A stretch of DNA of 35,886 bases, from contig CAYZAZ010000005.1 in the NCBI GenBank assembly GCA_964476545.1, forward strand, positions 1 through 35,886. Direction: 5' to 3'. A program made the translations under genes and the position numbers. Source of the stretch: an uncultured Gammaproteobacteria bacterium. Lineage in GTDB: Bacteria; Patescibacteriota; Microgenomatia; UBA1406; GWC2-37-13. The notes beneath the pieces are model-generated. The model had not been told where the DNA came from, ran no database searches, and saw nothing but the letters and a program-made list of their open reading frames with translations. Positions 1,157-35,818 of the stretch are shown here, one piece after another (within the stretch, counting starts at the first letter, position 1; each line of letters opens with the position of its first letter).

Positions 1157-4100
1157 TTTTAACTGTACCGCATTATCCACCAACACACTCAATTTATCTT
1201 CCCGGTTACTAACTTTTCCTTTTAAAATTATCACATTATTAATACCAATAAATGTTTTGAGTTTTGTAAATATTTTTGGGAATATTACACATTCGATAGA
1301 TCCAGTCTCATCGAAGATTGTTAAAAAAGCCATTTCATGATTGTCCTTTTTTGTCTTTATAATTTTCTTATTGCTGATTAAACCAACTAAAATAACATCT
1401 TTTTTATCATCTTCAATATTTACCTCACCAATTTTTTTAGTTGATTTTTTGGCAATGATGTCTTTAAATTTGTCTAAAGGATTTTTGGTAATCAAAAAAC
1501 CAATTACCTCCTTTTCCATATTATAAATGTCATCTTCAGGAAAATCAGCCATTTTCTCAAAATTATCTTGAAAAACAGAGGCAGTAATGCTTTGCTGAAA
1601 CAAACCAAACTGACCTTTTTCTTTATCATCTTTTAGGGAAGCAATATCCCTTACAAAAATGGGGTAATGATGCATTAATGTGGCTCTATTGGCAAATCCC
1701 GAAAAAGCACTCGCTTTTACTAAACTTTCAATGGTTTTTTTATTTACCCTTCTTAAATCTACCTTAAATAAAAAGTCCTTAAAACTTGTAAAGGATCCGG
1801 CTTTTCTCGATTCCATAATTGAATCAATTGCCGCCTCACCAACATTTTTAATCGCCGAGAGTCCAAATCTAATACCATCATTTTCAATAGAAAAACTATG
1901 TTCTGATTTATTTATATCTGGCGGGTATACTTTTAATTCCATTCTACGACACTCCTCCAAAGCCTGCGACATTTTAATCTCGCGCATTGGGCCGGCCATT
2001 CCCTGAAGTTCTGCCGAAAGAAGAGCAGTCATAAACTCTACCGGATAATTTGCTTTAACATAGGCTGTCCAATAAGCAATTAATCCATATGAAGCCGAAT
2101 GAGGCTTGTTAAACCCATAAGCCGCAAACTTTTCCATAAAGCTAAAGATATTCTCGGCTAATCCTTTTGAATAACCCTTGACTACACAACCTTTAATAAA
2201 TTTTTCTTTTTCTAACTTCATCAGCGACTTCTTCTTTTTTCCCATGGCCATGCGCAAATTATCGGCCTGACTCATTGTGTACCCAGCTAATTTATTAGCA
2301 ATTTCCATTACTTGCTCCTGATAAACTAAAATACCATAAGTCTCTTCGAGAATTGATTTTAAATCAGGATGCAAATATTTAATTTTCTTTGCATTCTTTT
2401 TACCTTCCAAAAACATCGGGATCAGTTCCATCGGACCCGGTCGATAAAGAGCCACCATAGCAGAAATGTCAGACATTTTATTAGGCTGTAATTCTTTCGC
2501 TAACTTTCGCATTCCCCCAGATTCGAGTTGAAAAACACCCACTGTCGCACCAGAAGCAATTAAATCATAGGCTAATTTATTATCTAAGGGAACATGATGA
2601 ATATCAATTTTTTGCTTTTTGAATTTTTCGACAAATTTCAAAGCTTTTTCTAAGATAGTTAAGTTACGCAGTCCCAAAAAATCCACTTTCAAAAGCCCAA
2701 TGGCTCGGTTATTTGAAACAGCATTCAAATCCAAACAATACATGTCATATTGGGAAATAATTCGTCCTTCTTTTGGCTCTTTTTGCAATGGCACGTAATC
2801 TGTAAGATTTGTATCTGAAATAACCACTCCCGCCGCGTGAACAGAAGAATGCCTTGGTAGGCCTTCAACTTTACGAGCAATATCGAGTACTTTTTTTGTG
2901 TCTTTTTCAGTCTGGTAAGCAAATTTAAGCTGTGATGATTCTTCAATTGCTTGAGAAATTGTCATATTAAAACCTTGCTTGCCAGGAGGAATCATTTTTG
3001 CCAACCGATCTCCTTGGGAGTATGACATTCCCAGTGCTCGGGTCACGTCACGTACCGCCAATCTTGCCTCCATTTTTCCGAAAGTAATAATTTGGGCTAC
3101 TTTATCGTCTCCATATTTATTGGTCACGTATTTAAGTACTTCATCACGGCGAATATCAGCAAAATCAATATCAATATCTGGTGGAGTTGGCCGATCTGGG
3201 TTTAAAAAACGTTCAAAGGGCAGATTATATTCCAAAGGATTAATATCGGTAATCCCTAAAACATAAGCCACTAATGAGCCAGCGACAGAACCTCTACCTG
3301 GTCCAACACCAATCTCGTGATTTTTCGCCCAGTTTACAAAATCCTGAACAATTAAAAAATAGGTGCTATAACCTTTACTAATAATAATTTTTAACTCATA
3401 ATCTAGTCTTTTATCAACAACTGATTGGTCATATTGAGAAAGTCTTTTTTTTGTTTGTGTAACCAACTCTTTAAGATATATTTCTGCAGTTTGGCCTTTT
3501 GGTGTGGTAAATTTCGGTAAAATCCAATTCCCATAAGGAATCTCCACATTGCATTCGCTAGCAATTTTTAAAGTATTTTCAATTGCTTCTGGCAAATCAA
3601 GAAAATTATTTTTCATTTCATCTGGTGATTTAAAATAAAAATCAGGGACATCAATCATCGACATGGGACGATTTTTTTCAATAATCGCTCTTTGCGTTTG
3701 GATACAGAGCAAGATTTCTTGAGCATAAGCATCTTCCGCATTTAAATAATGTACGTCATTGGTTGCAACAAGCGGGACACCAAATTTACGAGAAAGTTTA
3801 ACTAGTTGTTGATTCACTTTTTCCTGATCTTCGACTTGTGGATGACGTTGAAGTTCTAAATAAAAATCCTTTTCAAAAATAGTTAAATATTTCTTTAATA
3901 TTTTTTCGGCTTCAATATTTTGATTTTGTAAAAGTAGACTCGCAATTTCACCACTCAGACAGGCGGACAAACCAATTAATCCTTCATGATATTTTTCTAG
4001 AAGTTCAAAATCAATTCGGGGTTTGTAATAAAACCCATCCAAATGTGCCGCCGTCACTAATTTTAATAAATTCTTATACCCTTGCAGATTTTTAGCCAAA

Positions 4101-4369
4101 AGAACTAAATGATTTTGGTCACGATCAACTCCCGTTTGCTTATCTAATCGGGAATTCTTGGCTTTATATGTTTCGACCCCAATAATCGGCTTAATGCCAA
4201 TATCTTTGGCGGCTAAAAAAAATTTAAACGCTCCATAAAGTGCCCCATGATCGGTTAAAGCAACTGCTGACATGTTATAAGATTTTGCTTTAGCCACTAA
4301 ATCATCAATTCGACACATACCATCGAGTAAGGAAAATTCTGAATGAGTATGAAGGTGAACAAAAGACAT
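1154..4369 (-). CDS. dnaE: DNA polymerase III alpha subunit
   Basis: 1071 aa. N-terminal PHP motif HLHTHSEFSLLDG, polymerase core motifs (GVGPGRGSVAGSLVAYVLGITDI, DIDIDF, FNKPHSASYG) and a C-terminal OB-fold-like region. Confidence 0.95.
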   Translation of the reverse strand: MSFVHLHTHSEFSLLDGMCRIDDLVAKAKSYNMSAVALTDHGALYGAFKFFLAAKDIGIKPIIGVETYKAKNSRLDKQTGVDRDQNHLVLLAKNLQGYKNLLKLVTAAHLDGFYYKPRIDFELLEKYHEGLIGLSACLSGEIASLLLQNQNIEAEKILKKYLTIFEKDFYLELQRHPQVEDQEKVNQQLVKLSRKFGVPLVATNDVHYLNAEDAYAQEILLCIQTQRAIIEKNRPMSMIDVPDFYFKSPDEMKNNFLDLPEAIENTLKIASECNVEIPYGNWILPKFTTPKGQTAEIYLKELVTQTKKRLSQYDQSVVDKRLDYELKIIISKGYSTYFLIVQDFVNWAKNHEIGVGPGRGSVAGSLVAYVLGITDINPLEYNLPFERFLNPDRPTPPDIDIDFADIRRDEVLKYVTNKYGDDKVAQIITFGKMEARLAVRDVTRALGMSYSQGDRLAKMIPPGKQGFNMTISQAIEESSQLKFAYQTEKDTKKVLDIARKVEGLPRHSSVHAAGVVISDTNLTDYVPLQKEPKEGRIISQYDMYCLDLNAVSNNRAIGLLKVDFLGLRNLTILEKALKFVEKFKKQKIDIHHVPLDNKLAYDLIASGATVGVFQLESGGMRKLAKELQPNKMSDISAMVALYRPGPMELIPMFLEGKKNAKKIKYLHPDLKSILEETYGILVYQEQVMEIANKLAGYTMSQADNLRMAMGKKKKSLMKLEKEKFIKGCVVKGYSKGLAENIFSFMEKFAAYGFNKPHSASYGLIAYWTAYVKANYPVEFMTALLSAELQGMAGPMREIKMSQALEECRRMELKVYPPDINKSEHSFSIENDGIRFGLSAIKNVGEAAIDSIMESRKAGSFTSFKDFLFKVDLRRVNKKTIESLVKASAFSGFANRATLMHHYPIFVRDIASLKDDKEKGQFGLFQQSITASVFQDNFEKMADFPEDDIYNMEKEVIGFLITKNPLDKFKDIIAKKSTKKIGEVNIEDDKKDVILVGLISNKKIIKTKKDNHEMAFLTIFDETGSIECVIFPKIFTKLKTFIGINNVIILKGKVSNREDKLSVLVDNAVQLK

Positions 4370-4375
4370 AAAGAT

Positions 4376-4404
4376 ATCTTAAATTTTAAATGTTAAAACT
4401 CAAA
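4376..4404 (-). promoter_or_regulatory. Candidate promoter of dnaE (TTTGAG-N17-TAAGAT), -10 box 6 nt from the ATG
   Basis: Minus-strand TAAGAT is plus 4376-4381 and TTTGAG is plus 4399-4404. The ATG is at 4369. It lies in a 44-nt module shared with the NUDIX promoter. Confidence 0.4.
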
Positions 4405-4419
4405 ACTACATCTTAAATC
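4376..4419. repeat. 44-nt heptamer-phased module, copy 1 (upstream of dnaE)
   Basis: ATCTTAA ATTTTAA ATGTTAA AACTCAA AACTACA TCTTAAA TC. Confidence 0.65.
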
Positions 4420-4436
4420 AAATTATAAATTCAGAT

Positions 4437-5834
4437 TTAAGATTTAACATGTAGATTTGACATTTGAGCTTTAAGTTTTGAGATAACAATATTGGCGTCA
4501 GCTTGCCCTCTCATCTCTCTCATCACCTGCCCGACTAAAAACATAATTGAATTTACCTTTCCTTTTTTATAATCCTCTACCACTTTTGGATTTTCCTTAA
4601 TTAACTGGTTAATTAAGGAATCCAGTCTCGCCACGTCAGTTTCCTTTGGTTGTAATGAATCCTTAGCTAACTTTATCAATTCTTTTTCAGATAACCTAAT
4701 TGAAATTTTTTTATTAATTATCACATTTACAAATTTTTCTGCAGACAATTTTTCTTTGAGCAAAACTTTAAACAGCTTGTCAATTTTTTCTGCTTCCTCG
4801 ACGGTTTCAAATATTAACTCGGTTAGCTTACGATTAACCTTATAATCTTTTTCCCAACGAATAAAAACTTCATTTAGAGTTTCTGGAACAGTAGATTTTA
4901 TTTCGTTTAACCACAGTTCATCAAACTTAATTGGTGGCAAATCCGGGTCTGGAAAATAACGATAGTCAGCCGCATTTTCCTTTGATCTTTGAACATAAGT
5001 AATATTTTTTTCCGCATTATAGCCCCGCGTCTCTTGATCAGGTAAATTGTTTTCGTCTAAAATTTTTGTTTGCCTGGCAATTTCATATTCAATACCTTTT
5101 TCTAAGTATCGAAATGAATTAATATTTTTAAGCTCAACTTTATATTTAGGTAATATGTCATCGCGAGGAGCGGTAGCGACGTGGCGATCTCCTTGAGATT
5201 GCTTCGCTTCCGCTCGCAATGACACCTTGGCCAAGGATATATTTGCTTCGAGTCTCATCCCCCCCTTCTCCATGTCACAATCTGAAATATCTAAATAACG
5301 AACAATTTGTCTCAATTTTTTCGCATATTCTTTTGCTTGAGCTGAAGAATATATTTCTGGCTCAGTGACAATTTCAACTAAAGGAACACTGGAACGATTA
5401 AAGTCAATTAAGCTCACGTCTTGACCATTTACTTGTTGATGAATTAATTTTCCAGTATCTTCTTCCAAATGAACGCGAGTTATACCAACTGGACCAAAAG
5501 ATGTCTCCACTTTTCCACCATAACAGAATGGTAAATCATACTGCGAAATCTGATAACCTTTAGGCAAATCAGGATAAAAATAATGTTTACGGTCAAATTT
5601 TGAAATTAAATTAATCTTGCAACCTAAAGCCAAACCTAATTTGATTGTCCACTCAATGGCTTTTTTATTGGCCACAGGTAATGCTCCGGGCATTCCCAAA
5701 CAAACTGGACAGGTATAGATATTTGGTTTTTCTGCGTGAAAAGGATCGTTTTTACAACCACAAAACATCTTCGAAGCTGTCTTTAACTCGACATGCACTT
5801 CCATGCCAATAATTGTTTGATATTTTTTATCCAT
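4437..5834 (-). CDS. gatB: Asp/Glu-tRNA amidotransferase subunit B, carrying an in-frame palindromic insertion
   Basis: 465 aa with GatB motifs (GMEVHVEL, CPVCLGMPGALP, ADYRYFPDPDLPP) and a C-terminal GatB/YqeY-like tail. Overlaps the gatA stop by 8 nt. The loop between ANISL and ELKNINSF is about 20 aa longer than I recall for B. subtilis GatB. Confidence 0.95.
   Translation of the reverse strand: MDKKYQTIIGMEVHVELKTASKMFCGCKNDPFHAEKPNIYTCPVCLGMPGALPVANKKAIEWTIKLGLALGCKINLISKFDRKHYFYPDLPKGYQISQYDLPFCYGGKVETSFGPVGITRVHLEEDTGKLIHQQVNGQDVSLIDFNRSSVPLVEIVTEPEIYSSAQAKEYAKKLRQIVRYLDISDCDMEKGGMRLEANISLAKVSLRAEAKQSQGDRHVATAPRDDILPKYKVELKNINSFRYLEKGIEYEIARQTKILDENNLPDQETRGYNAEKNITYVQRSKENAADYRYFPDPDLPPIKFDELWLNEIKSTVPETLNEVFIRWEKDYKVNRKLTELIFETVEEAEKIDKLFKVLLKEKLSAEKFVNVIINKKISIRLSEKELIKLAKDSLQPKETDVARLDSLINQLIKENPKVVEDYKKGKVNSIMFLVGQVMREMRGQADANIVISKLKAQMSNLHVKS
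5157..5223. repeat. GTCATTGCGAG-type palindromic element inside gatB, translated in frame
   Basis: Terminal inverted repeats GTCATCGCGAG (5157-5167) and CTCGCAATGAC (5213-5223). Central stem GCGATCTC-ctt-GAGATTGC. Encodes VSLRAEAKQSQGDRHVATAPRDD. Confidence 0.75.
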
Positions 5835-7248
5835 TATTTTCTAAAATTGTTGGTAATTTTTTATGCCAATCAGTTTCCTGCTGATATAAGTAGCCCATTT
5901 GTAATAGTTCGTTTTCTGCAAATCTTTTACCAATGATCTGCATTCCGACTGGTAATCCCTCGGCAAAGCCGGCAGGAATCGCTAAACTGGGTGCACCCAC
6001 TAAATTAATCGTCACGGTATACAAATCTTCTAAAATATTTTTTAGAGGATCATTTATTAATTCACCAATTTTGGCCGGTAAACTGGGGGAAACTGGCGCC
6101 AGCAAAACATCACACCCTTTCAGGGCGTTTTCATATTCTGCAATCAAAATTGTTCTTAATTTCTGAGCTTTTTTATAAAGTTCGTCAGCATATCCGGCCG
6201 ACAAGGCATAAGTACCCAACAATATTCTTCTTTTTGTTTCCGCAGAAAACAACTCTCTCTGTCCTCCATATCTTATTCCGTCATAGCGACTCAAATTCGA
6301 GCTCGTCTCACTGGGGGCAATCAAATAATATATAGAAACTCCATAAATAAAATGAGGTAAACTAACTTCTCTCACTTCCGCTCCTAATTTTTCAAAAACT
6401 TTGGTGGCTTCAATGATTGTTTCTTTAGCTTTGGGATCAAGACCCTTGCCAAAAAATTCTTTAGGCAAACCAATCACTTTGCCTTTGATTGACTGACCTA
6501 AAAATTGAGAATATTGATCGACCTTCTGATGAGAACTTGTCGAATCCAAATTATCTTTTCCAGCCATAATTTCGAGCAAATAACTCAAGTCTTCAACGGA
6601 TTTAGCCATGGGTCCGATTGTATCCAACGACGAAGCGTAAGCGATTGTTCCCAGTCTCGAAACCCGACCATAAGTAACTTTTAAACCAGAAATACTACAC
6701 ATGCTGGCTGGACTCCGAATAGATCCTCCCGTATCTTCGCCAATCGAAAAAGGAACCATGCGGGTGGAAATGGCAATGGCCGATCCACCAGATGATCCTC
6801 CAGGGATTCTTGACAAATCCCAAGGATTATGGGCTGGTTGATAATCGGTATTTTCAGTGGACCCACCATGACCCCAAGCATCCATATTATTTTTTCCAAT
6901 CAAGATTGATCCTGATTGAATAATTTTTTTAAAAACAGTGGCGCTATATTGGGGTAAATAATCATCAAGAATTTTATTACCGGCTGTCGTGCGAATATTT
7001 TCCGTGCAGTAAGCATCTTTGATTGAAAAAGGCAGGCCAGATACAATTGACGCACTTTCATCTCTTAGTTCATCATTTTTCTCTGCTTCTTTTAAAACAT
7101 CTTTCTTATCTCTAATTGTTATAAAACTATGAAGTTTGCTATCTAATTTTTCCACCTGAGCAAAAGATTCTTTTACTAAGTCCACAGAACTCACTTCCTT
7201 TTTTTTTAGCATTAGTGCCAACTCTTTGATTGATTTGTTAATTAGCAT
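5827..7248 (-). CDS. gatA: Asp/Glu-tRNA amidotransferase subunit A (amidase family)
   Basis: 473 aa with the amidase signature GGSSGGSA and flanking Ser/Gly-rich motif. Lies in gatC-gatA-gatB order. Confidence 0.95.
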   Translation of the reverse strand: MLINKSIKELALMLKKKEVSSVDLVKESFAQVEKLDSKLHSFITIRDKKDVLKEAEKNDELRDESASIVSGLPFSIKDAYCTENIRTTAGNKILDDYLPQYSATVFKKIIQSGSILIGKNNMDAWGHGGSTENTDYQPAHNPWDLSRIPGGSSGGSAIAISTRMVPFSIGEDTGGSIRSPASMCSISGLKVTYGRVSRLGTIAYASSLDTIGPMAKSVEDLSYLLEIMAGKDNLDSTSSHQKVDQYSQFLGQSIKGKVIGLPKEFFGKGLDPKAKETIIEATKVFEKLGAEVREVSLPHFIYGVSIYYLIAPSETSSNLSRYDGIRYGGQRELFSAETKRRILLGTYALSAGYADELYKKAQKLRTILIAEYENALKGCDVLLAPVSPSLPAKIGELINDPLKNILEDLYTVTINLVGAPSLAIPAGFAEGLPVGMQIIGKRFAENELLQMGYLYQQETDWHKKLPTILENNG

Positions 7249-7249
7249 A

Positions 7250-7549
7250 TTAATCGTCTTTTAGAATTTGCGGTACTAAAAAATAACCATTGTGATTACT
7301 TTTACTATTTTTTAAGACTTGCTCCTGGGTAAAAGAAGACGTCACTTCATCCGCCCGAAAAACATTTCCCTCATCCGAAACTCGCGTTGTTTCTTGAATA
7401 TCTTTCACATCCAGATTTTTTATTTCTTCCATATAGCCAATAACCGAGGAAAACTGACCCGTATATTTTTCCACTTCATCATCGGTTAAATTAATCTTCG
7501 CCAGCTTGGCCAAATTTTTTATCAAATCTTTGGAAATAGTATTAGTCAT
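7250..7549 (-). CDS. gatC: Asp/Glu-tRNA amidotransferase subunit C
   Basis: 99 aa, ends 1 nt before the gatA start. GatC-like N-terminus (LAKLAKINLTDDEVEKY). Shine-Dalgarno AAAGGTGA sits 4 nt upstream of the ATG on the minus strand. Confidence 0.85.
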   Translation of the reverse strand: MTNTISKDLIKNLAKLAKINLTDDEVEKYTGQFSSVIGYMEEIKNLDVKDIQETTRVSDEGNVFRADEVTSSFTQEQVLKNSKSNHNGYFLVPQILKDD

Positions 7550-9969: not shown

Positions 9970-10788
9970 TTAAATCCGACTAATCATATTTGATCTTGCC
10001 TTATATTCCAAACTATCATCTAGTTTACTTAACTCTATCTTTTTTTTATATTTTATTTCCAGTGCTTTTTCAATCAGCCAATCGGCAATCTCCGGATTCT
10101 TTGGCAAAATCGGCCCGTGCAAATATGTCCCAATCGCATTTTTATATCTTATACCTTCGGTCCTATCCTCGCCATTATTCCCATATCCTTTTATAACACT
10201 AGCAAACGCTTGCGACTTATCTCCTAGATAAGTTCGTCCACCATGATTCTCAAAACCGACGAATTCAAATTTGTCATTGCGAAGCTGAGCGAAGTCGAAG
10301 CTGAAGCAATCCGATTGAGATTGCTTCGTCGTCCCATTATGATTTGGCTCCTCACAATAACATATAGGCTTAATCATCACATTCCCAATTAATCTTTTTT
10401 CTCCCACCTTTGAACTCTCTGTAAACAAGTCAAATAATCCTAAACCCTCTAATTTTTTTGATTCAGCCGTTAAATAATATTTTCCCATGAATTGATAAGC
10501 GCCACAAATAAATAAAGCCGGAATATTATTATTTATTAATTTTTTTATTTCTTCACCTTTTCCTGAAAATAAATCTTTATTCACAATCTCTTGTTGAGTG
10601 TCTTGCGCCCCGCCCATAAAAATTAAGTCAATATTTTGCAATTCATCAAGTTTAGATTGAACAGAAATCCTTTTTACTTCCACATCGATTCCCCGCCACT
10701 GGCATCTTTTTTTTAGAACAATCACATTGCCCCGGTCACCATACGTACTCATGAGATCAGGATAGAGCCAGGCTATATTCAATTTCAT
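9970..10788 (-). CDS. gatD: Lipid II isoglutaminyl synthase glutaminase subunit (CobQ-type GATase), carrying an in-frame palindromic insertion
   Basis: 272 aa. N-terminus LYPDLMSTYGDRGNV and VGFENHGGRTY are typical of GatD/CobQ-like amidotransferases. Lies 7 nt downstream of murT. There are about 25 extra residues between RLIGNVMI and VGFENH. Confidence 0.8.
   Translation of the reverse strand: MKLNIAWLYPDLMSTYGDRGNVIVLKKRCQWRGIDVEVKRISVQSKLDELQNIDLIFMGGAQDTQQEIVNKDLFSGKGEEIKKLINNNIPALFICGAYQFMGKYYLTAESKKLEGLGLFDLFTESSKVGEKRLIGNVMIKPICYCEEPNHNGTTKQSQSDCFSFDFAQLRNDKFEFVGFENHGGRTYLGDKSQAFASVIKGYGNNGEDRTEGIRYKNAIGTYLHGPILPKNPEIADWLIEKALEIKYKKKIELSKLDDSLEYKARSNMISRI
10273..10361. repeat. GTCATTGCGA-type palindromic element inside gatD, translated in frame
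   Basis: Termini GTCATTGCGAAG (10273-) and CTCACAATAAC (-10361). Perfect 9-bp core stem GAAGCAATC-cgattga-GATTGCTTC (10303-10327). Shares the 14-mer TTGAGATTGCTTCG with the gatB element. Confidence 0.75.
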
Positions 10789-10795
10789 ATTAATT

Positions 10796-12040
10796 TTAAA
10801 TTAATGATTTGCCAACTAAAATTTTCCTCACTTCCAACATTCCTGTATAGGTGGCTAAAATAACTATTTTTTCCTCTTTTTTTGTACTCGCAACAATCTC
10901 TTCCACAGCATCTTCTAAATCTTCTAAAATTTTAAATTTTTCTATTTCTCCATATTTCAATCGTATTCCCATATCTAGGCAACGATCCCCGGAAACTACA
11001 ATTTGGCCTTCTAATTGTTCAAACTCTACGTCCCAAATCCATGAGATATCTTTTCCGTCGGGTATGCGATCATTCAAAACCAAAAGTAAATGACGTTTGT
11101 CTTTTCCAAATATTTCATTCATAACCGCAATTGATTGATTAAATCCCGTTGGATTTTTGGAAAGTAATAAATAGATTTTTCTACCTTTATAGATAATTTC
11201 TTCTTGCCTACCAAAGGCAGGTTTGAACTGCTTTAAGGCAATAGCAATTTTTTCAAGCGGTATGTGTAAAATCTGATCTAAAAAAGTAAAAACTGCATTC
11301 GTATTATATTTATTATAAATTCCTTTTAAGGGGAGTTCTAGATTGTAATTAATAATCGTTGGATTCATAAATTTACATTTTAAACACTGATATTTTCCCA
11401 AATGTGAATAAGAGATTCCGCTATAAGTAAGCATGCTATTGCATTTTGGACAGTAGATTGAATCAACATCGTGGGGAATATCTTTAACTTGAGCTAAATC
11501 CTGACTTACACCAAAGTAGTAAACATTGGCTTTACAATTTTCGCCAAGATATGCAATTTGCGGATCATCGCCATTTAAAATTAAACTTGTATTCTTATCT
11601 AGAGTCTGAATACTCTTTCGCCAATTATTAGCAATTGTATTTACCTCACCATATCTATCTAATTGATCACGAAATAAATTTAATAAAATTAAAGTATGAG
11701 GTTTTAGTTGCTTTAGAGTTTGAGGTAAAGTATTTTCATCTATTTCAAAAGTGGCAAAATCATAAGTTATTTTTTTTGGAAAATTAACACTCTTAATTAT
11801 TGCCGAGGCCACGCCATTTAATAAATTTGCTCCTTCTTCATTTTGAAAAACAGTTTTCCCATCTGCTTCCAAAATAAATTTAATCAAAGTTGATGTGGTT
11901 GTCTTCCCATTTGTTCCCGCTATTAAAATAACTTTTGTATCAGACGTGGAAAAAAAATCCTTAATAAAATTTTTATTGAATCTCAAAGCAATCTCTCCCG
12001 GCCACGTCGAACCAGACCCTAGACTTAACAATCTAATCAA
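10796..12040 (-). CDS. murT: Lipid II isoglutaminyl synthase, Mur-ligase-family subunit
   Basis: 414 aa. P-loop GTNGKTTT, a Cys4 ribbon (CPKCNSML...CLKC) typical of MurT and a C-terminal DUF1727-like region. The start as listed is a TTG codon, and no in-frame ATG lies upstream before a stop. Confidence 0.85.
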   Translation of the reverse strand: MIRLLSLGSGSTWPGEIALRFNKNFIKDFFSTSDTKVILIAGTNGKTTTSTLIKFILEADGKTVFQNEEGANLLNGVASAIIKSVNFPKKITYDFATFEIDENTLPQTLKQLKPHTLILLNLFRDQLDRYGEVNTIANNWRKSIQTLDKNTSLILNGDDPQIAYLGENCKANVYYFGVSQDLAQVKDIPHDVDSIYCPKCNSMLTYSGISYSHLGKYQCLKCKFMNPTIINYNLELPLKGIYNKYNTNAVFTFLDQILHIPLEKIAIALKQFKPAFGRQEEIIYKGRKIYLLLSKNPTGFNQSIAVMNEIFGKDKRHLLLVLNDRIPDGKDISWIWDVEFEQLEGQIVVSGDRCLDMGIRLKYGEIEKFKILEDLEDAVEEIVASTKKEEKIVILATYTGMLEVRKILVGKSLI

Positions 12041-14684: not shown

Positions 14685-14756
14685 GCGGTGGTAGTTCAGC
14701 GGTAGAATGTCTCCTTCCCAAGGAGAAGGTCGCCGGTTCAAATCCGGTCCACCGCT
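14685..14756 (+). tRNA. tRNA-Gly (anticodon CCC)
   Basis: Hand-folded cloverleaf: acceptor GCGGTGG/CCACCGC, D arm GTTC-AGCGGTA-GAAT, anticodon arm TCTCC-TTCCCAA-GGAGA, T arm GCCGG-TTCAAAT-CCGGT, discriminator T. CCA is not encoded. Confidence 0.9.
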
Positions 14757-14844: not shown

Positions 14845-15561
14845 ATGAATAATAAATGGGATAAACTTAGCTCTAAGTTTAATGTTCATAAAAATAGAGA
14901 CGAAATAGATCCTGGAGCAGCAGACAATATTCTTATTGCATGGCCACCAATTATTGACTTAATTACCAAACATTTTGGCAATTCCCAGATAAAAGGACTA
15001 AAAGCTTTAGATTATGGATGTGGAACAGGCGGATTCACTCAAAAGTTGGACTCTTTAGGATTTGATGTGATTGGAGTTGATACTTCCGAAGGCATGCTTG
15101 ATCTTGCTAGAAAATATAACAATAACAAAATACATTTTCTAAAAACAGAACAAATTCCAGTGAATGAAAAATACAACCTTATTACTGGAATTATGGTATT
15201 TCAATTTATTGAGAAAATTGAAGAAACTCTTAATCAATTGACCCAACGGTTAAATAAAGATGGGTTAATAGTATTTGCTGTTTTTAATCCAAAATTTGTT
15301 GCTTCATGTCTAAAGACACATGTTTTGTTTTCTCATTTTGATTCAGAAAGTAATCCAAAGAGAGGAATTATTAGCTTTGGGAAAGAATTAGATATTCAAA
15401 CCTTTATAAGAAACGCCGATGATTATAACAAAATCATGAATAATTTAGGTTTAAGTAAAAAATTAGAAGCGTATCCGAAATTTACGCAAGAATATTTAGA
15501 TAAATACCCTATTAATACACCAATTGATGAATCTGAGTATCTGATTTTAAGTTATTGTTAA
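14845..15561 (+). CDS. Class I SAM-dependent methyltransferase
   Basis: 238 aa with SAM-binding motif I (ALDYGCGTGGFT) followed by the acidic loop VIGVDTSEGM. Confidence 0.8.
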   Translation: MNNKWDKLSSKFNVHKNRDEIDPGAADNILIAWPPIIDLITKHFGNSQIKGLKALDYGCGTGGFTQKLDSLGFDVIGVDTSEGMLDLARKYNNNKIHFLKTEQIPVNEKYNLITGIMVFQFIEKIEETLNQLTQRLNKDGLIVFAVFNPKFVASCLKTHVLFSHFDSESNPKRGIISFGKELDIQTFIRNADDYNKIMNNLGLSKKLEAYPKFTQEYLDKYPINTPIDESEYLILSYC

Positions 15562-15695: not shown

Positions 15696-16523
15696 ATGTT
15701 ATCTCGCAAAATTGCCCTTTTTCAAGGTAACCGAATTCGTCGTTTATGGAACGATAAAGAAGAAAAATGGTATTTTTCTATTATAGATGTTGTAGCAGTA
15801 TTAACAGCGAGCACAAATCCCCAAGTTTATTGGAGAGTTCTTAAAAAAAGATTAATCGACGAAGGTTCAAATGAAACCGTTACAAAATGTAACGGGTTGA
15901 AAATGTTAGCCACTGACGGAAAAATGAGATTGACTGATGTCGCTGATACAGAAGTTCTGCTCCGAATAATTCAAAGTATCCCTTCACCAAACGCAGAACC
16001 ACTTAAACTTTGGCTAGCACGAGTTGGCTATGAACGACTTGAAGAAACAGCAGATCCAGAACTGACCATCAATCGTGCACTAAAAACATATTTACAAAAA
16101 GGTTACAGCCGAGAATGGATAAATCAACGTTTAAAAAGTATTGAAGTCCGCAAGGAATTAACCAATGAATGGGAAAATCGTGGAGTTAAAGAAGGATTGG
16201 AATTTGCGATTTTAACAAATGAAATAACTGAAGCTTGGGCTGAACTAACAACCAAACAATATAAACAGCTCAAAGGTTTAAAAAAACAAAACCTGAGAGA
16301 TAATATGACAAATTTGGAGTTGGTACTAAATATGCTTGCAGAAACAGCTACAACTGAAATCTCACAGAAAAAACAACCTAAAAACTTCCCCGAAAATAAA
16401 AAAGTAGCACGTGAGGGAGGAACCGTTGCTGGAAATGCCCGAAAAGAAATTGAATCAAAAACTAAAAAAAAAGTAATCACCAGTAAGAACGCAAAAGATT
16501 TAAAATTACTGAAGCAAAAATAA
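15696..16523 (+). CDS. Bro-N domain protein (phage-antirepressor / DinD-like)
   Basis: 275 aa. N-terminus (FQGNRIRRLWNDKEEKWYFSIIDVVAVLT ... NAEPLKLWLARVGYERLEE) matches my recollection of Bro-N family proteins. Lys-rich C-terminal tail. Confidence 0.7.
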   Translation: MLSRKIALFQGNRIRRLWNDKEEKWYFSIIDVVAVLTASTNPQVYWRVLKKRLIDEGSNETVTKCNGLKMLATDGKMRLTDVADTEVLLRIIQSIPSPNAEPLKLWLARVGYERLEETADPELTINRALKTYLQKGYSREWINQRLKSIEVRKELTNEWENRGVKEGLEFAILTNEITEAWAELTTKQYKQLKGLKKQNLRDNMTNLELVLNMLAETATTEISQKKQPKNFPENKKVAREGGTVAGNARKEIESKTKKKVITSKNAKDLKLLKQK

Positions 16524-16628: not shown

Positions 16629-16702
16629 GCCTTTTTAGCTCAACGGTAGAGCAGCGGTATCGTAAACCGTAGATGTCAGTTCAATTCTGACAAAAGGCTC
16701 CA
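16629..16702 (+). tRNA. tRNA-Thr (anticodon CGT), CCA encoded
   Basis: Hand-folded cloverleaf: acceptor GCCTTTT/AAAAGGC, D arm GCTC-AACGGTA-GAGC, anticodon arm GCGGT-ATCGTAA-ACCGT, T arm GTCAG-TTCAATT-CTGAC, discriminator T, CCA at 16700-16702. Confidence 0.9.
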
Positions 16703-34000: not shown

Positions 34001-34319
34001 TGATGAAGCTTCTAAATCAGATTTCTTTGATAATACGGCTGATGAAAGAGGCACGCCAGGCGCAACTAACCGTTCAGAAAACGAACCCTATGTCGAAAAT
34101 CCAACTCAATCACCCACTCAATCACCCATGCCAACAATTGAGATTACACCTGTTCCAGAATTTACAGAAACACCAGTTCAGCCCACCCCAACAATCTTTT
34201 CAACCCCCGGGGTTGAAAGTGAAGTTACGCCAACTATTGAACCAACGGTCGAGCCCACAAATCAACCAGTTAGTGAACCAACTAACGAACCAATTACTGA
34301 TCCAACACCCACAATATGA
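31089..34319 (+). CDS. SipW/archaeal-type (S26B) signal peptidase I fused to a large extracellular adhesin-like region (Ig/FN3-like, CBM-like, lamin-tail domain, Pro/Thr-rich tail)
   Basis: 1076 aa. Residues 1-165 read TM, then VTTGSMRPKIPEGSIVFV...ITF...VTHRIV...TKGDANNSND, then TM, matching the SipW/ER-type peptidase boxes. Residues 166-210 form an internal signal-peptide-like segment ending FGVFTD. Downstream are WRVQAKD../WVRIRAKDIAGN Ig-like modules, NSDFETGDLTNW (CBM4/9-like), FN3 (TWTAPGNDG...YDIRYS), lamin-tail motif INELMWMGS..DQWIELRN and a PT-rich tail. Confidence 0.8.
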   Translation: MSKVLKIIWRILPTIILVLTSVSILTILPLRNSPFKAFIVTTGSMRPKIPEGSIVFVDRKPSKPLKTNDIITFKKPNNPIDNVTHRIVKIILKSGKPVIITKGDANNSNDVWDLKKDAIWGKVVFSLPYIGYFANFAKTKIGVIILVLIPLGFIAISELFVIFKEVEKFKERRRKKKQKNSSTEILSKTLPLLLIFLNITLLNSFGVFTDRITSTLAVVTTKCWTNPLQPTSLLPNNNTVSNSTDINFSWPATTSNCPIATLEYNFQIFSDSSLTTLVTESGFLSNLSFNYTSIPEGEYWWRVQAKDQYNNTSNSTSHHLIIDRTSPTVPGQIDWTTENPPSGSDYISGSDFDNFKTCNGALNYSPMTNLWSPSTDTNSFTYEREVYSPIGNLIYFHLGMTTNYENGGGAVDGTTYWVRIRAKDIAGNYSAWTSKCAITYDTTSPSIPSLSVTGSFTKAVEEKINNSDFETGDLTNWRSAGDVQVMTTDNGSTPDFTVTPYDGVYMTRIGQASSYVWENRLMGSFDSGAKSLSMRYNFFSRDAGSQDNPGFFIRLNGQEIFSLNTSSVNPGAINDGNARSTDWQEYKYDLSNVTDSKINLAMYAGNTSDTLNNSWVYVDKITTYFVSAPAHAIYDLSGSDNLGGSGISHFEYDIDGSGWLTGNSFGNVAPFSNGGTHTLLYRSIDNAGNSSAISTVRIITDDIAPSTISDLAVTSTSNTANLTWTAPGNDGTSNRASSYDIRYSTSNITDDTTFNSATKVEKVPVPKEPGETENLEIIGLNPSTLYYFAVKTSDEAPNTSLLSNVPSDTTSAGSTINAGDLIINELMWMGSSQGADDQWIELRNMTDHAIDLTNVTFTKYDGTTDILMLTIPSGNIPAHGYFLIANFANTASKLKDSLTVDLVTTDVDLSNANLSIKLFDSTLNMIDEAWDQSAPIEGIYDATPGSEKYYSMERTSVPGNGTDPLNWYTCIDEASKSDFFDNTADERGTPGATNRSENEPYVENPTQSPTQSPMPTIEITPVPEFTETPVQPTPTIFSTPGVESEVTPTIEPTVEPTNQPVSEPTNEPITDPTPTI

Positions 34320-35626
34320 AAAATTTAACTAAATATCTAATTAATTTTACAATTATTTTTTATTCATTATTCTTTATTAATTTATCTTTTACATTTGCCG
34401 CTGATTTTAATTTAGACTGTACCGGTTCAGGATGTAATAAAACAGGTATTGAACCTCTCTTTAATAATACGACCGATGGCGTCTGGTACCCAGGCCGAAC
34501 TCTTACAAAATCAATTAATTTGAAAAACTCTTCCGCTGATTCTAAAGAAATGGATATTAAACCAACAAGAACATCCACTTCAAATATTTTAGAAGATGTT
34601 ATGCAGATTAGTATTGTTACAAATCCAGGTGGCTTAGTAATTTGGGCTGGAAGCTTGAGTGATTTTTATAATCAAACGAAAATAAATATGGGAACATTTT
34701 CCTCGGGAGTAAATCAAGATTATAACTTTAGTGCCACTATGAACTCATCTGCCGACAATAGCTATCAAAATTTAGAGTCAGTTTTTGATTTGACTCTTGG
34801 TTTTTGGGAAGAATCACCCACGCCTACTCCAACAGATGCTGGTGGAGGCGGTGGCGGAGGAGGAACAAGTGACGGATCAGTTTCTGGCGCCTCAGCACCA
34901 GTTTGTAATGACACTGCACCAGCCAGCGCCCCAAATATTTTATTTGCAACAGGTGGAACCAATAGTGTCACTTTAACTTGGAGTGAAGCATCTGCTCCAG
35001 TTTCTTATTATTTAGTGGCTTATGGCGCTTCTCCAAGTAATAATACATATGGTAATCCCAATGTCGGAGGAAATGGCACAACAAGCTACACTGTCTCTGG
35101 CTTATCAGGTGGCACTAACTATTGTTTCATTGTTCGCGCAGGGAATGGTTGTAAGCCAGGTCCTTTTTCAGGTCAAGTTTGTGCAACTCCTGGAGGAATT
35201 TTTATTCCTGCTGGACCAGCCGCTGGCTTTGCCGAAGGCGTCCTCGGAGAAGCTACTCAATCGGCGGAATTAAGCTCCACCCCATCAGCCGGAATTCTTG
35301 GCGCAACTCAAAATAAAACTTGTAAAGATTGTCTTTGGTGGCAGATACTTCTTGGAGAGTTTATTGTTCTTTTAGCTTTTTATTTTATATTAGTAAAAAA
35401 ACTACACAAAAAAGTAAAATACACTGCTTATTTTGGAATTTTTATTCCAATTTTAACCTATATTATATTTCTTTGGTTAAATAGAAATTGCTTTGGTGGC
35501 TTTAAATTTACCTTTATTATTCCTTCAATTAATTTTTTCTGTAAATATTTTCTTATCTTAGCGACAATTCTTTATACAGCGGTCACACTTTATTGGAGAC
35601 ATAAAAAAACAGAAGTAGTTAAATAA
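34316..35626 (+). CDS. Membrane-anchored protein: N-terminal signal/anchor, TasA/camelysin-like domain, Gly/Pro-Thr linker, FN3 domain and three C-terminal TM helices
   Basis: 436 aa. Its start overlaps the upstream stop (ATGA). VWYPGRTLTKSINLKNSS and ...NSYQNLESVFDLTLGF parallel the TasA-family PGD...KN.GS and C-terminal FQG...F motifs. Also has a G8 linker, an FN3-like SVTLTWSEASAPVSYYLVAYG...YCFIVRAGN, and hydrophobic helices after residue ~340. Confidence 0.65.
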   Translation: MKNLTKYLINFTIIFYSLFFINLSFTFAADFNLDCTGSGCNKTGIEPLFNNTTDGVWYPGRTLTKSINLKNSSADSKEMDIKPTRTSTSNILEDVMQISIVTNPGGLVIWAGSLSDFYNQTKINMGTFSSGVNQDYNFSATMNSSADNSYQNLESVFDLTLGFWEESPTPTPTDAGGGGGGGGTSDGSVSGASAPVCNDTAPASAPNILFATGGTNSVTLTWSEASAPVSYYLVAYGASPSNNTYGNPNVGGNGTTSYTVSGLSGGTNYCFIVRAGNGCKPGPFSGQVCATPGGIFIPAGPAAGFAEGVLGEATQSAELSSTPSAGILGATQNKTCKDCLWWQILLGEFIVLLAFYFILVKKLHKKVKYTAYFGIFIPILTYIIFLWLNRNCFGGFKFTFIIPSINFFCKYFLILATILYTAVTLYWRHKKTEVVK

Positions 35627-35718: not shown

Positions 35719-35818
35719 GTCATTCTGGCAAACGATGAGTGCTGAAGTGCGTCCAGAATCGTCGTCTAAACAACGATCCTGGATAATCCTTCGATAAACT
35801 CAGGATTACCAGGATGAC
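35719..35818. repeat. Intergenic double-hairpin palindromic element with GTCATTCTGG / CCAGGATGAC termini
   Basis: Terminal inverted repeat matches 9 of 10. Inner pairings are ATTCTGG...CCAGAAT and ATCCTGGATAATCC...GGATTACCAGGAT. Confidence 0.6.

Follow-up and report, generated by a model that had tools for sequence, protein, structure and literature searches.

An in-frame palindrome in gatD of a Microgenomates bacterium: a probable decayed doublet of a dispersed hairpin repeat

Introduction

How does a palindrome come to lie inside the gene of an essential cell-wall enzyme without breaking its reading frame, and what kind of element is it? The question is raised by contig CAYZAZ010000005.1 (35,886 nucleotides (nt), analysed over its full length and called the window below), from a low-GC (33%) bacterium of the Microgenomates group of the Candidate Phyla Radiation (CPR), with its best protein relatives in Levybacteria and Roizmanbacteria. 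The window encodes GatD, the glutamine amidotransferase subunit of lipid II isoglutaminyl synthase (9970–10788, minus strand, 272 amino acids (aa)), and within gatD lies an imperfect palindrome of 89 nt (10273–10361). We consider it likely that the palindrome represents a small REP- or REPIN-type repeat (repetitive extragenic palindrome; REP doublet forming hairpin), non-coding and by now decayed, which landed in frame in a tolerated surface loop. In-frame hairpin repeats within genes have already been described, as a published survey records (PMC3733652); the host group and the target genes are new.

The insert in GatD

The insert comprises 30 in-frame codons (10273–10362, minus strand, 90 nt) for GatD residues 143–172 (CYCEE...LRND; in full CYCEEPNHNGTTKQSQSDCFSFDFAQLRND). 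A preliminary description of the locus had counted 25–30 extra residues here, and comparison with the closest orthologues and with Staphylococcus aureus GatD, all of which lack them, fixes these at exactly codons 143–172. Against the S. aureus structures (5N9M, 6GS2) the protein aligns in two blocks, with the break at query residues 140/171 and chain residues 136/137, which is a beta-hairpin turn. Across 120 GatD orthologues the stretch from RLIGN to VGFENHGG measures from about 6 to 39 residues, and the five nearest orthologues (70–76% identity outside the loop) have loops of 11–12 residues and no palindrome. In the nearest relative (P0002; L302, 2203–2235) the loop is encoded by a tandem hexamer, (AAAGTC)5, coding for KSKVKSQKSKV, again with no palindrome. 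Homologous inserts lacking the palindrome were not found among the closest GatD sequences, which have neither insert nor palindrome. By these alignments the insertion is lineage-specific, and since the window's own clade has no inserts, its copy is an independent event.

The hexamer loop suggests repeat expansion as a second frame-safe route by which GatD and GatB loops grow. Similar low-complexity runs of K, S, V and Q were also seen in many GatB loops (QSQKSKVKSQNLNSKVKS and others).

GatD is a GATase_3 partner of the ligase MurT, whose gene (10796–12040, minus strand) lies immediately upstream in the same operon. Cys95, Arg132 and His224, which correspond to the active-site residues C94, R128 and H189 of S. 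aureus GatD, are retained and form invariant columns in the alignment, so the enzyme looks intact. An AlphaFold2 model built on 66 orthologues reached a mean predicted local distance difference test (pLDDT) score of 89.7 and placed the insert between strands 133–141 and 176–182; the means of the 10-residue blocks over residues 141–170 were 65, 51 and 52, and the 30 residues are predicted to form what is probably a disordered loop.

The identical protein was predicted on six contigs, which come from six assemblies of Rifle groundwater project material and related samples, and the insert is hence not an assembly artefact. An intein was ruled out, the insert being far too short, and excision as an intron or at the RNA level is unsupported, the open frame being maintained.

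Two hairpins per element

The plus strand of the element reads GTCATTGCGAAG...GAAGCAATC-cgattga-GATTGCTTC...CTCACAATAAC (in full, GTCATTGCGAAGCTGAGCGAAGTCGAAGCTGAAGCAATC-CGATTGA-GATTGCTTCGTCGTCCCATTATGATTTGGCTCCTCACAATAAC). Its extent and its perfect 9-base-pair (bp) core stem are as first described; the 11-nt termini are complementary at just 8 of 11 positions (GTCATTGCGAA against GTTATTGTGAG). At all four conserved boxes it aligns to a wider repeat family, within which the palindrome is a decayed pair of REP-type hairpin units set head to head. It had first been viewed as a single hairpin. The pairing itself stood, with covariation from ATTGC/GCAAT to ATCGC/GCGAT inside each arm; the single-hairpin view did not, and on the sequence evidence the element is two inverted hairpin units placed head to head, not one long hairpin.

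Arm A (10273–10311, plus strand) reads GTC-ATTGC-GAA-(GCTGAGCGAAGTCGAAGCT)-GAA-GCAAT-C and is preceded by T, giving a TGTC tag. Folded as DNA it forms the 5-bp basal stem ATTGC/GCAAT and an AGCT/AGCT stem, and its distal part holds GCGAAGT, a degenerate form of the GCGAAGC mini-hairpin. A 7-nt apical spacer, CGATTGA (10312–10318), separates it from arm B (10319–10361, minus strand), which on the coding strand reads GTT-ATTGT-GAG-(GAGCCAAATCATAATGGGACGAC)-GAA-GCAAT-C, with two C>T changes in the terminal box; the tag is here tGTT (one C>T change) and in arm A tGTC, and the tails are CCG and CTC. The 23-nt distal segment of arm B belongs to a GAGCC...GGCGAC class found in other family copies too, and since that class exists elsewhere, an 11-nt AT-rich insertion was rejected as the sole cause of the arm's length.

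Two side observations concern the distal part of arm A (10285–10299). It is itself shaped like a small unit, GCT-GAG-CGAAGT-CGA-AGC, and it has the 15-mer TTCGACTTCGCTCAG (peptide FDFAQ) in common with the GatD loop of another contig (L175, 1612–1626; P0087).

The element has 47% GC in a gene of 36%, and it aligned box for box with about 100 family members. The arm pattern GTCATTGCGAG-N(3-35)-GAAGCAATC fits both halves, each box having no more than two mismatches, for an expectation of 0.12 arms per shuffled window. Folding of the whole element beats shuffled sequences modestly (z = -2.7 for the RNA sense strand, -1.7 for the plus strand and -0.9 for DNA), and the two-box match is the stronger evidence against chance.

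In the family, each unit consists of a (C/T)GTC tag, an ATTGC stem, GA, a distal hairpin, G(A/T/C)(A/G), GCAAT and a C-rich tail. The tag is unpaired, the 5-bp basal stem begins A-T, T-A, and the internal loop is purine-rich (GA / GAA). Covariation assigns the pairing to the single arm. At position 3 of ATYGC, set against the inner GCRAT of the same arm in distinct copies, T:A was counted 195 times, C:G 20 times, T:G twice and C:A never (Fisher 2.6e-26), and 23 of 25 C-bearing elements have C on one arm only, a mismatch if the element were a single long hairpin. In alignment A2, 99.8% of cells pair under the within-arm structure, and its 19 doubly changed cells compare with 1.9 in shuffles (none of 500 reached 19). 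The between-arm structure gave 2 doubly changed cells against 2.1 in shuffles, 315 of 500 of which reached that value, and left 9 unpaired cells at each of two variable pairs.

The distal hairpins vary with free covariation (GCCGAAGGCC, GCCCCAAAGGGGCC, GCTACGGAGTAGCC, GAGCCCCGATGAATCGGGGCGAC), and their short forms, G-CGNAG-C or G-CGNNAG-C, are the d(GCGNAGC)/d(GCGNNAGC) mini-hairpin. In related CPR copies the whole basal stem has changed in a compensatory manner, to ATCCT/AGGAT and ATTCT/AGAAT; like ATTGC/GCAAT and ATCGC/GCGAT, these stems begin with AT and end with AT. To sample stem variants without bias, metagenomes were scanned with GAGCGNAGCGAA as the anchor and the positions of the basal stem left free; among the matches listed, 105 of 121 arms had TGC/GCA, which shows a conserved basal stem and little extra covariation.

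A dispersed repeat family

A search pattern made of the termini alone (GTCATYGCGAG-N25-55-CTCGCRATGAC) matched 43 viral contigs and more than 120 genome contigs from a one-genome-per-species set of GTDB. The family thereby extends to at least 12 bacterial phyla plus viral contigs. By record title its hosts are Alpha-, Beta-, Gamma- and Deltaproteobacteria, Bacteroidota, Chloroflexi, Cyanobacteria, Nitrospirae and Nitrospinae, and further Planctomycetes, Acidobacteria, Armatimonadetes, Omnitrophota, Firmicutes and CPR bacteria (Berkel-, Saccharibacteria, Woesebacteria). The inner box GAAGCAATC/GATTGCTTC, absent from the pattern, was found in 154 of 184 copies, followed in the consensus by a CCA tail (GAAGCAATCCA), the commonest form in the family. 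A few matches having the termini alone were set aside as non-members, for example a Pseudomonas putida REP in L123.

The family is dispersed: near-identical copies with unrelated flanks lie on single contigs, three of them in L032, which supports the proposal of a mobile or copy-spread element. Among 173 distinct copies no target-site duplication above chance was found for k = 2–5 (k = 3: 0 against 2.7 expected). The base before GTC is a pyrimidine (C 112, T 47) and the base after the element a purine (G 114, A 48), so that the bounds read CGTC...GACG. Units are mostly arranged as head-to-head dimers, in all three copies of the window and in most of those collected, a predominance that is partly a consequence of a search pattern for dimers; single arms are seen too.

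Does the element itself preserve the frame? The lengths of canonical copies modulo 3 are spread 54/50/48 with no bias to 3n, about half of all copy/strand/frame combinations are stop-free, and about 17% are both stop-free and 3n long. Frame preservation would therefore be a selective filter and not a property of the element; of the earlier idea of a frame-preserving repeat, the filtering holds and a built-in length bias does not. In low-GC loci, where long open reading frames (ORFs) are informative, canonical copies proved mostly intergenic, with long ORFs reading through a minority.

Rfam gave no match for the window or the canonical copies at gathering or E-value thresholds, only spurious microRNA matches. 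Literature searches on the box strings (GTCATTGCGAG, CTCGCAATGAC, GCGAAGCAATCC and related ones) returned only primer coincidences, and searches pairing CPR or Patescibacteria with REP found nothing relevant.

Several unusual arrangements were seen along the way. L138 (44–437) carries a tandem array of six 60-nt doublets with a 67-nt period, L030 (3052–3440) and L048 (4415–4803) three copies each about 156 nt apart, L215 (3910–4903) eight arms with a 121-nt period and fixed 33-nt and 20-nt spacers, and L256 (1897–2223) six arms in an array. In L155 the doublet sits within a larger 142-nt composite repeat, found three times and in both orientations (1536–1677, 5537–5678, 7282–7430). A different GC-rich palindrome of 116 nt (ATCCTCCCCTGCAAGGGGAGG...) adjoins a family copy in L033 (991–1106), with weak, spurious microRNA matches in Rfam.

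Further copies in the window

A second doublet of the same family, 67 nt long (5157–5223), encodes residues 204–226 of GatB (VSLRAEAKQSQGDRHVATAPRDD). It reads GTCATCGCGAGGAGCGGTAGCGACGTGGCGATCTC-CTT-GAGATTGCTTCGCTTCCGCTCGCAATGAC, has arms ATCGC/GCGAT and ATTGC/GCAAT with a tGTC tag and a CTC tail on both, and contains the mini-hairpin motifs GCGGAAGC and GCGGTAGC. It is better preserved than the gatD copy, with 60% GC in a gene of 35%, and it folds well (z-scores of -5.7 and -4.8; -5.7 as RNA).

A shared 14-mer and a shared peptide first prompted the proposal that the inserts in gatD and gatB are of one palindromic family. In the window the 14-mer TTGAGATTGCTTCG is present at exactly two places, 5193 and 10315, and with up to two mismatches it has three matches against 0.31 expected, a number that none of 100 shuffles reached; the arm pattern and the alignment agree with this assignment. 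The common peptide KQSQ is real and reflects a common reading frame through that box. The same orientation of the two copies, also put forward in the preliminary description, turned out to be uninformative, because the element is a pseudo-symmetric doublet, which in either orientation has GAAGCAATC on the coding strand 5' of the loop. An apparently short GatB allele in L002 was traced to scaffold N gaps and is not an empty site; a GatB of 459 aa in L179 still has the element.

A looser search for tagged hairpins added a third, intergenic doublet of a sister type at 35719–35818, in the spacer after a gene with an fn3 domain (34316–35626). Its arms read GTC-ATTCTGG...CCAGAAT-C and GTC-ATCCTGG(TA-ATCCT-GAG-TTTATC-GA-AGGAT-TA)CCAGGAT-C, the second enclosing a complete nested unit, TA-ATCCT-GAG-TTTATC-GA-AGGAT-TA, and its DNA fold has z = -3.25. 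The gatD and gatB copies are thus not the only ones in this genome. When the host sequence was extended by about 6.3 kb over both ends, no further family copies were found in it. Contig L176 of another assembly ends 11 nt short of the third doublet; assemblies often stop at repeats.

Comparison with known repeats

The closest known kind to the gatD element are dimers of the CGTC-tagged REPs, families CGTC-1 to CGTC-4 (Di Nocera, De Gregorio, Rocco, BMC Genomics 2013;14:522; PMC3733652). In that survey these repeats have an unpaired CGTC tag (TGTC or CCTC being allowed), stems that start A-T, T-A, a CCA tail and a mainly head-to-head dimeric arrangement; they are reported from five phyla, come with no dedicated transposase, and as intragenic dimers encode 20–30 residues. 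Rickettsia palindromic elements (RPEs) are among them (RPE-4 as a member of CGTC-4, RPE-6 of CGTC-1), Neisseria dRS3 is also listed, and REP dimers are reported sitting within other palindromes (PMC3733652). The ATTGC family shares the tag (by the base counts before GTC given above), the A-T/T-A start of the stem, the C-rich tail, the dimers, the lack of a transposase and the in-gene copies. It differs in its stem, which has 5 bp at the base, then a GA/GAA internal loop and a distal hairpin of variable length, where CGTC REPs have 8–9-bp stems and 4–5-nt loops. The intragenic peptides that the survey lists are VIPAKAGIQ..DSRLRGND for CGTC-1 and VMPGLDPGIH..DGRVKPGHD for CGTC-3, none there being of the VIASEAKQS, LAMT or ARND type, and CPR, Chloroflexi, Nitrospirae and others lie outside the five phyla it names. 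The ATTGCGAG...GAAGCAAT unit may correspond to the subset called 'Bradyrhizobium CGTC-1 with other loops' there, or may be a further, fifth family.

With RPEs, which Ogata et al. reportedly described in 2000, the gatD copy shares its palindromic form, its in-frame position in a conserved protein gene whose orthologues lack it, a reduced host genome, tolerance in a loop and repeated strikes on the same gene classes. The hosts differ, Rickettsia on one side and a free-living or episymbiotic CPR bacterium on the other, as do the stem and loop sequences, and RPE-1 is longer, about 100–150 bp. The link to RPEs runs solely through the survey's assignment of RPE-4 and RPE-6 to CGTC families.

REPIN/RAYT systems (REP-associated tyrosine transposases) and bacterial interspersed mosaic elements (BIMEs), with the GTAG-tagged REPs of Gammaproteobacteria, are said to have been set out by Bertels and Rainey in 2011, Nunvar in 2010 and Ton-Hoang in 2012. 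They resemble the present elements in their two inverted REP hairpins forming a larger hairpin, a 5' tetranucleotide tag at each foot, no target-site duplication and presumed movement as single-stranded DNA. Their tag is GTAG, unlike the CGTC/TGTC found here, and their families are species- or genus-specific, unlike the ATTGC boxes, which are kept across phyla; no flanking RAYT gene was found here. A GTAG REPIN with its RAYT was excluded by the tag and by the absence of a Y1-like ORF in the searched window and flanks. The element is not a GTAG REPIN with a RAYT, nor a MITE (miniature transposable element with inverted repeats), nor an Rfam family.

In the short arms the distal part is exactly the mini-hairpin motif of Hirao and co-workers (GCGAAGC, GCGCAGC, GCGGAGC, GCGTAGC), and the gatB copy has it as GCGGAAGC and GCGGTAGC. 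This mini-hairpin, d(GCGNAGC)/d(GCGNNAGC), is extraordinarily stable in DNA and considerably less so in RNA, is a poor substrate for single-stranded DNA-binding protein (SSB) and marks priming sites (PMC13037366). It is a physico-chemical motif, found in phage origins, ssi sites and N4 promoters, and not a repeat family; in the present element its role would be that of a hairpin cap.

Repeated insertion into the GatD and GatB loops

The same loops have been struck in other Microgenomates. Clean ATTGC-type copies lie in the GatD loop of L170 (P0111, 72 nt) and L171 (P0095, 81 nt); they sit at different codons and share the reading frame of the window copy, as TTKQS in the core and RND/RDD at the 3' end show. 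A member of the same clade, L173 (P0115), carries the ATCCT sister type there, and so does L172 (P0101), which belongs to another clade and whose nearest relative (80% identity) lacks an insert. L174 (P0048; 648–677) has an unrelated C5/G5 hairpin, CCCCCTTTTTCAAAGGGGG (peptide PPFSKGE), in a clade whose other members have ATTGC-type or ATCCT-type units in this loop. Single units at L170 3923–3946 and L172 214–237, with an 8-bp stem and a 4-nt loop (GTCATCCTGAACTTGTTTCAGGATC), agree with the published description of a CGTC unit. Two observations on L171 stand apart: its GatD is fused to an N-terminal GrpB domain (3316–4689, 457 aa), and an intergenic ATTGC-type doublet (6667–6734) takes up most of an 87-nt spacer between two genes.

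In GatB the hot-spot loop of Microgenomates lies between RLEANISL and LPNYKVELKN (homologues P0122–P0240), with a minimal form, QKKGETK, in 34 of 121 sequences. The loop of the window copy is of the ATTGC type. Elsewhere, CGTC-1-type peptides occupy it (AVIPVKTRIQENMDSRLRGND in P0122, P0124, P0125 and P0128; AVIPAKAGIQ...LRGDD in P0155 and P0166), single arms occur in P0138, P0220, P0130 and P0150, and P0149 has another type, VILASGQSPRVQNP..LLPRMT (VILASGQ...LLPRMT).

That several hairpin families arrived independently in these two loops, one of GatD and one of GatB, points to selection for permissive loops. Insertion points lie a few codons apart between lineages, which a permissive-loop filter fits better than a precise target site does.

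Origin and maintenance of the gatD copy

How could such a repeat enter and stay? In this lineage a doublet entered the DNA for the tip of the GatD surface beta-hairpin, adding 90 nt and no stop. In the course of events that we favour, insertions would be blind to frame, and in a gene-dense genome only stop-free copies of 3n length in permissive loops of essential genes would persist; the gatD copy would have been kept on these grounds, translated as a 30-residue loop, with no host function, and would since have been drifting toward the AT-rich composition of the genome. Spread would most likely involve single-stranded DNA hairpins handled in trans by an HUH/Y1-type or other enzyme, since the lack of target-site duplications and the hairpin-plus-tag anatomy fit such a route.

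Several points weigh against this interpretation. The window encodes no transposase, and a limited-sensitivity search of about 1.2 Mb of flanks of about 180 copies (phmmer, with five published RAYT/TIRYT sequences as queries and the ORFs of 100 aa or more at those loci as targets) returned no Y1/RAYT-like ORF. Clustering of neighbouring genes at about 160 loci likewise gave no gene common across phyla, only related alphaproteobacterial contigs and spurious high-GC ORFs. Related copies number three in about 42 kb of host genome, every assembly found carries the gatD and gatB inserts, mobility in this lineage is presumed, and the best 'empty site' is an orthologue only 67% identical overall (76% outside the loop). 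Conservation of the terminal boxes is partly built in, as they were set by the search pattern. The evidence for the within-arm structure is that one position of the basal stem covaries in each arm, together with the variable distal hairpins, and nearest-neighbour folds of single arms recovered the expected shapes with energies no better than shuffles (z about 0); such models give no credit to sheared G-A pairs. Translation of the insert, finally, is deduced from its open frame.

The alternative that survives best dispenses with a transposase, and we regard it as unlikely. Hairpins would arise or propagate through host replication and repair (template switching at quasi-palindromes, gene conversion), horizontal transfer with recombination, and a bias to hairpin-prone DNA. 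No transposase was found here, nor is one reported in the CGTC survey (PMC3733652), which also records REP dimers within other palindromes. Nesting is seen in the distal part of arm A (the GAG-CGAAGT-CGA unit) and in the ATCCT unit of the third element, and one clade has hairpins of different families in the same loop of GatD; a bias toward hairpin-prone DNA would explain both the nesting and the repeated strikes on the same loops. The poor binding of SSB to mini-hairpin DNA and its marking of priming sites (PMC13037366) would also suit this route. On the other side, the near-identical copies of L032 with their unrelated flanks resemble copy-and-insert events, the orthologue that lacks the insert shows just (AAAGTC)5 at the site and no palindrome, and the shifted insertion points fit selection on the protein loop as well as they fit DNA targeting.

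A further, bolder reading is just as doubtful: the ATTGC/GAAGCAATC doublet would be a separate, still active family of single-stranded DNA hairpins without a transposase of its own, built on the mini-hairpin, constant in sequence over at least 12 bacterial phyla (CPR among them) and using a universally conserved host function at the replication fork. Candidates for that function, each put forward with the same reserve, are primase, SSB-excluded hairpins or a widespread trans-acting HUH enzyme, and landing in or beside hairpin-forming DNA would be an equally uncertain part of it. If true, essential enzymes such as GatD and GatB would offer recurrent landing pads in their beta-hairpin loops, and the family would generally supply ultra-small CPR genomes with new protein loops.

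Recruitment of the gatD and gatB copies, as a hairpin in the mRNA that stabilises it or slows its translation, or as a new surface loop of the enzyme, seems improbable. According to the survey (PMC3733652), REP-type hairpins elsewhere presumably work as RNA elements, the gatB copy folds well as RNA, and the clean copies of L170 and L171 stay near consensus in host proteins only 74% identical. The gatD copy, in contrast, is decaying, with mutated boxes, a weak RNA fold and a weaker DNA fold; its closest relatives manage without an insert, loop contents are unrelated between lineages (hexamer repeat, different hairpin families), the insert is predicted to be disordered, and the wider family is mostly intergenic.

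A classical MITE, a deletion derivative of an insertion sequence with a DDE transposase moved by cut-and-paste through its terminal inverted repeats, is very improbable. Like the Correia, Nezha and ERIC elements, the ATTGC repeats are small, non-coding, foldable and dispersed in multiple copies with inverted termini, and bacterial MITEs sometimes lie in frame within genes. MITEs carry the terminal inverted repeats of a parent insertion sequence and target-site duplications, neither of which is seen in this family; complementarity spans the whole element and not its termini alone, the conserved pairing lies within each half, and single arms occur by themselves. That the insert is an ancestral or chance feature of GatD, its palindrome and gatB likeness being coincidence or assembly artefact, hardly deserves credence, for although the loop varies in length across orthologues, an external family matches at four boxes, the shared 14-mer is unexpected by chance, six independent assemblies agree and the five nearest orthologues have no insert.

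With the gatD palindrome read as a decayed, in-frame copy of a REP/REPIN-type repeat, selfish DNA within protein genes, known from Rickettsia and few other bacteria, would operate in CPR too, where essential enzymes of the cell wall (GatD) and of translation (GatB) are struck repeatedly at the same permissive loops. For annotation, inserts of 20–30 residues with peptides such as VIASEAKQS, SLRAEAKQS, DCF..LAMT and ..ARND or PRDD would be repeat-derived and not lineage-specific functional motifs. The transposase-orphan hairpin superfamily would be extended to many more phyla, with a structural model of two independent tagged hairpins capped by DNA mini-hairpins, while the means of spread is only inferred.

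Minor observations

A weak single-arm match in gatA (6280–6322; GTCATAGCGAC...GGGGCAATC) has no partner arm and is probably due to chance, given the 0.12 arms expected per window.

Two tRNA genes (14685–14756 and 16629–16699) flank a methyltransferase gene (14845–15561) and a gene with a Bro-N domain (15696–16523). The Bro-N domain is often phage-associated, and the stretch may be a small integrated remnant.

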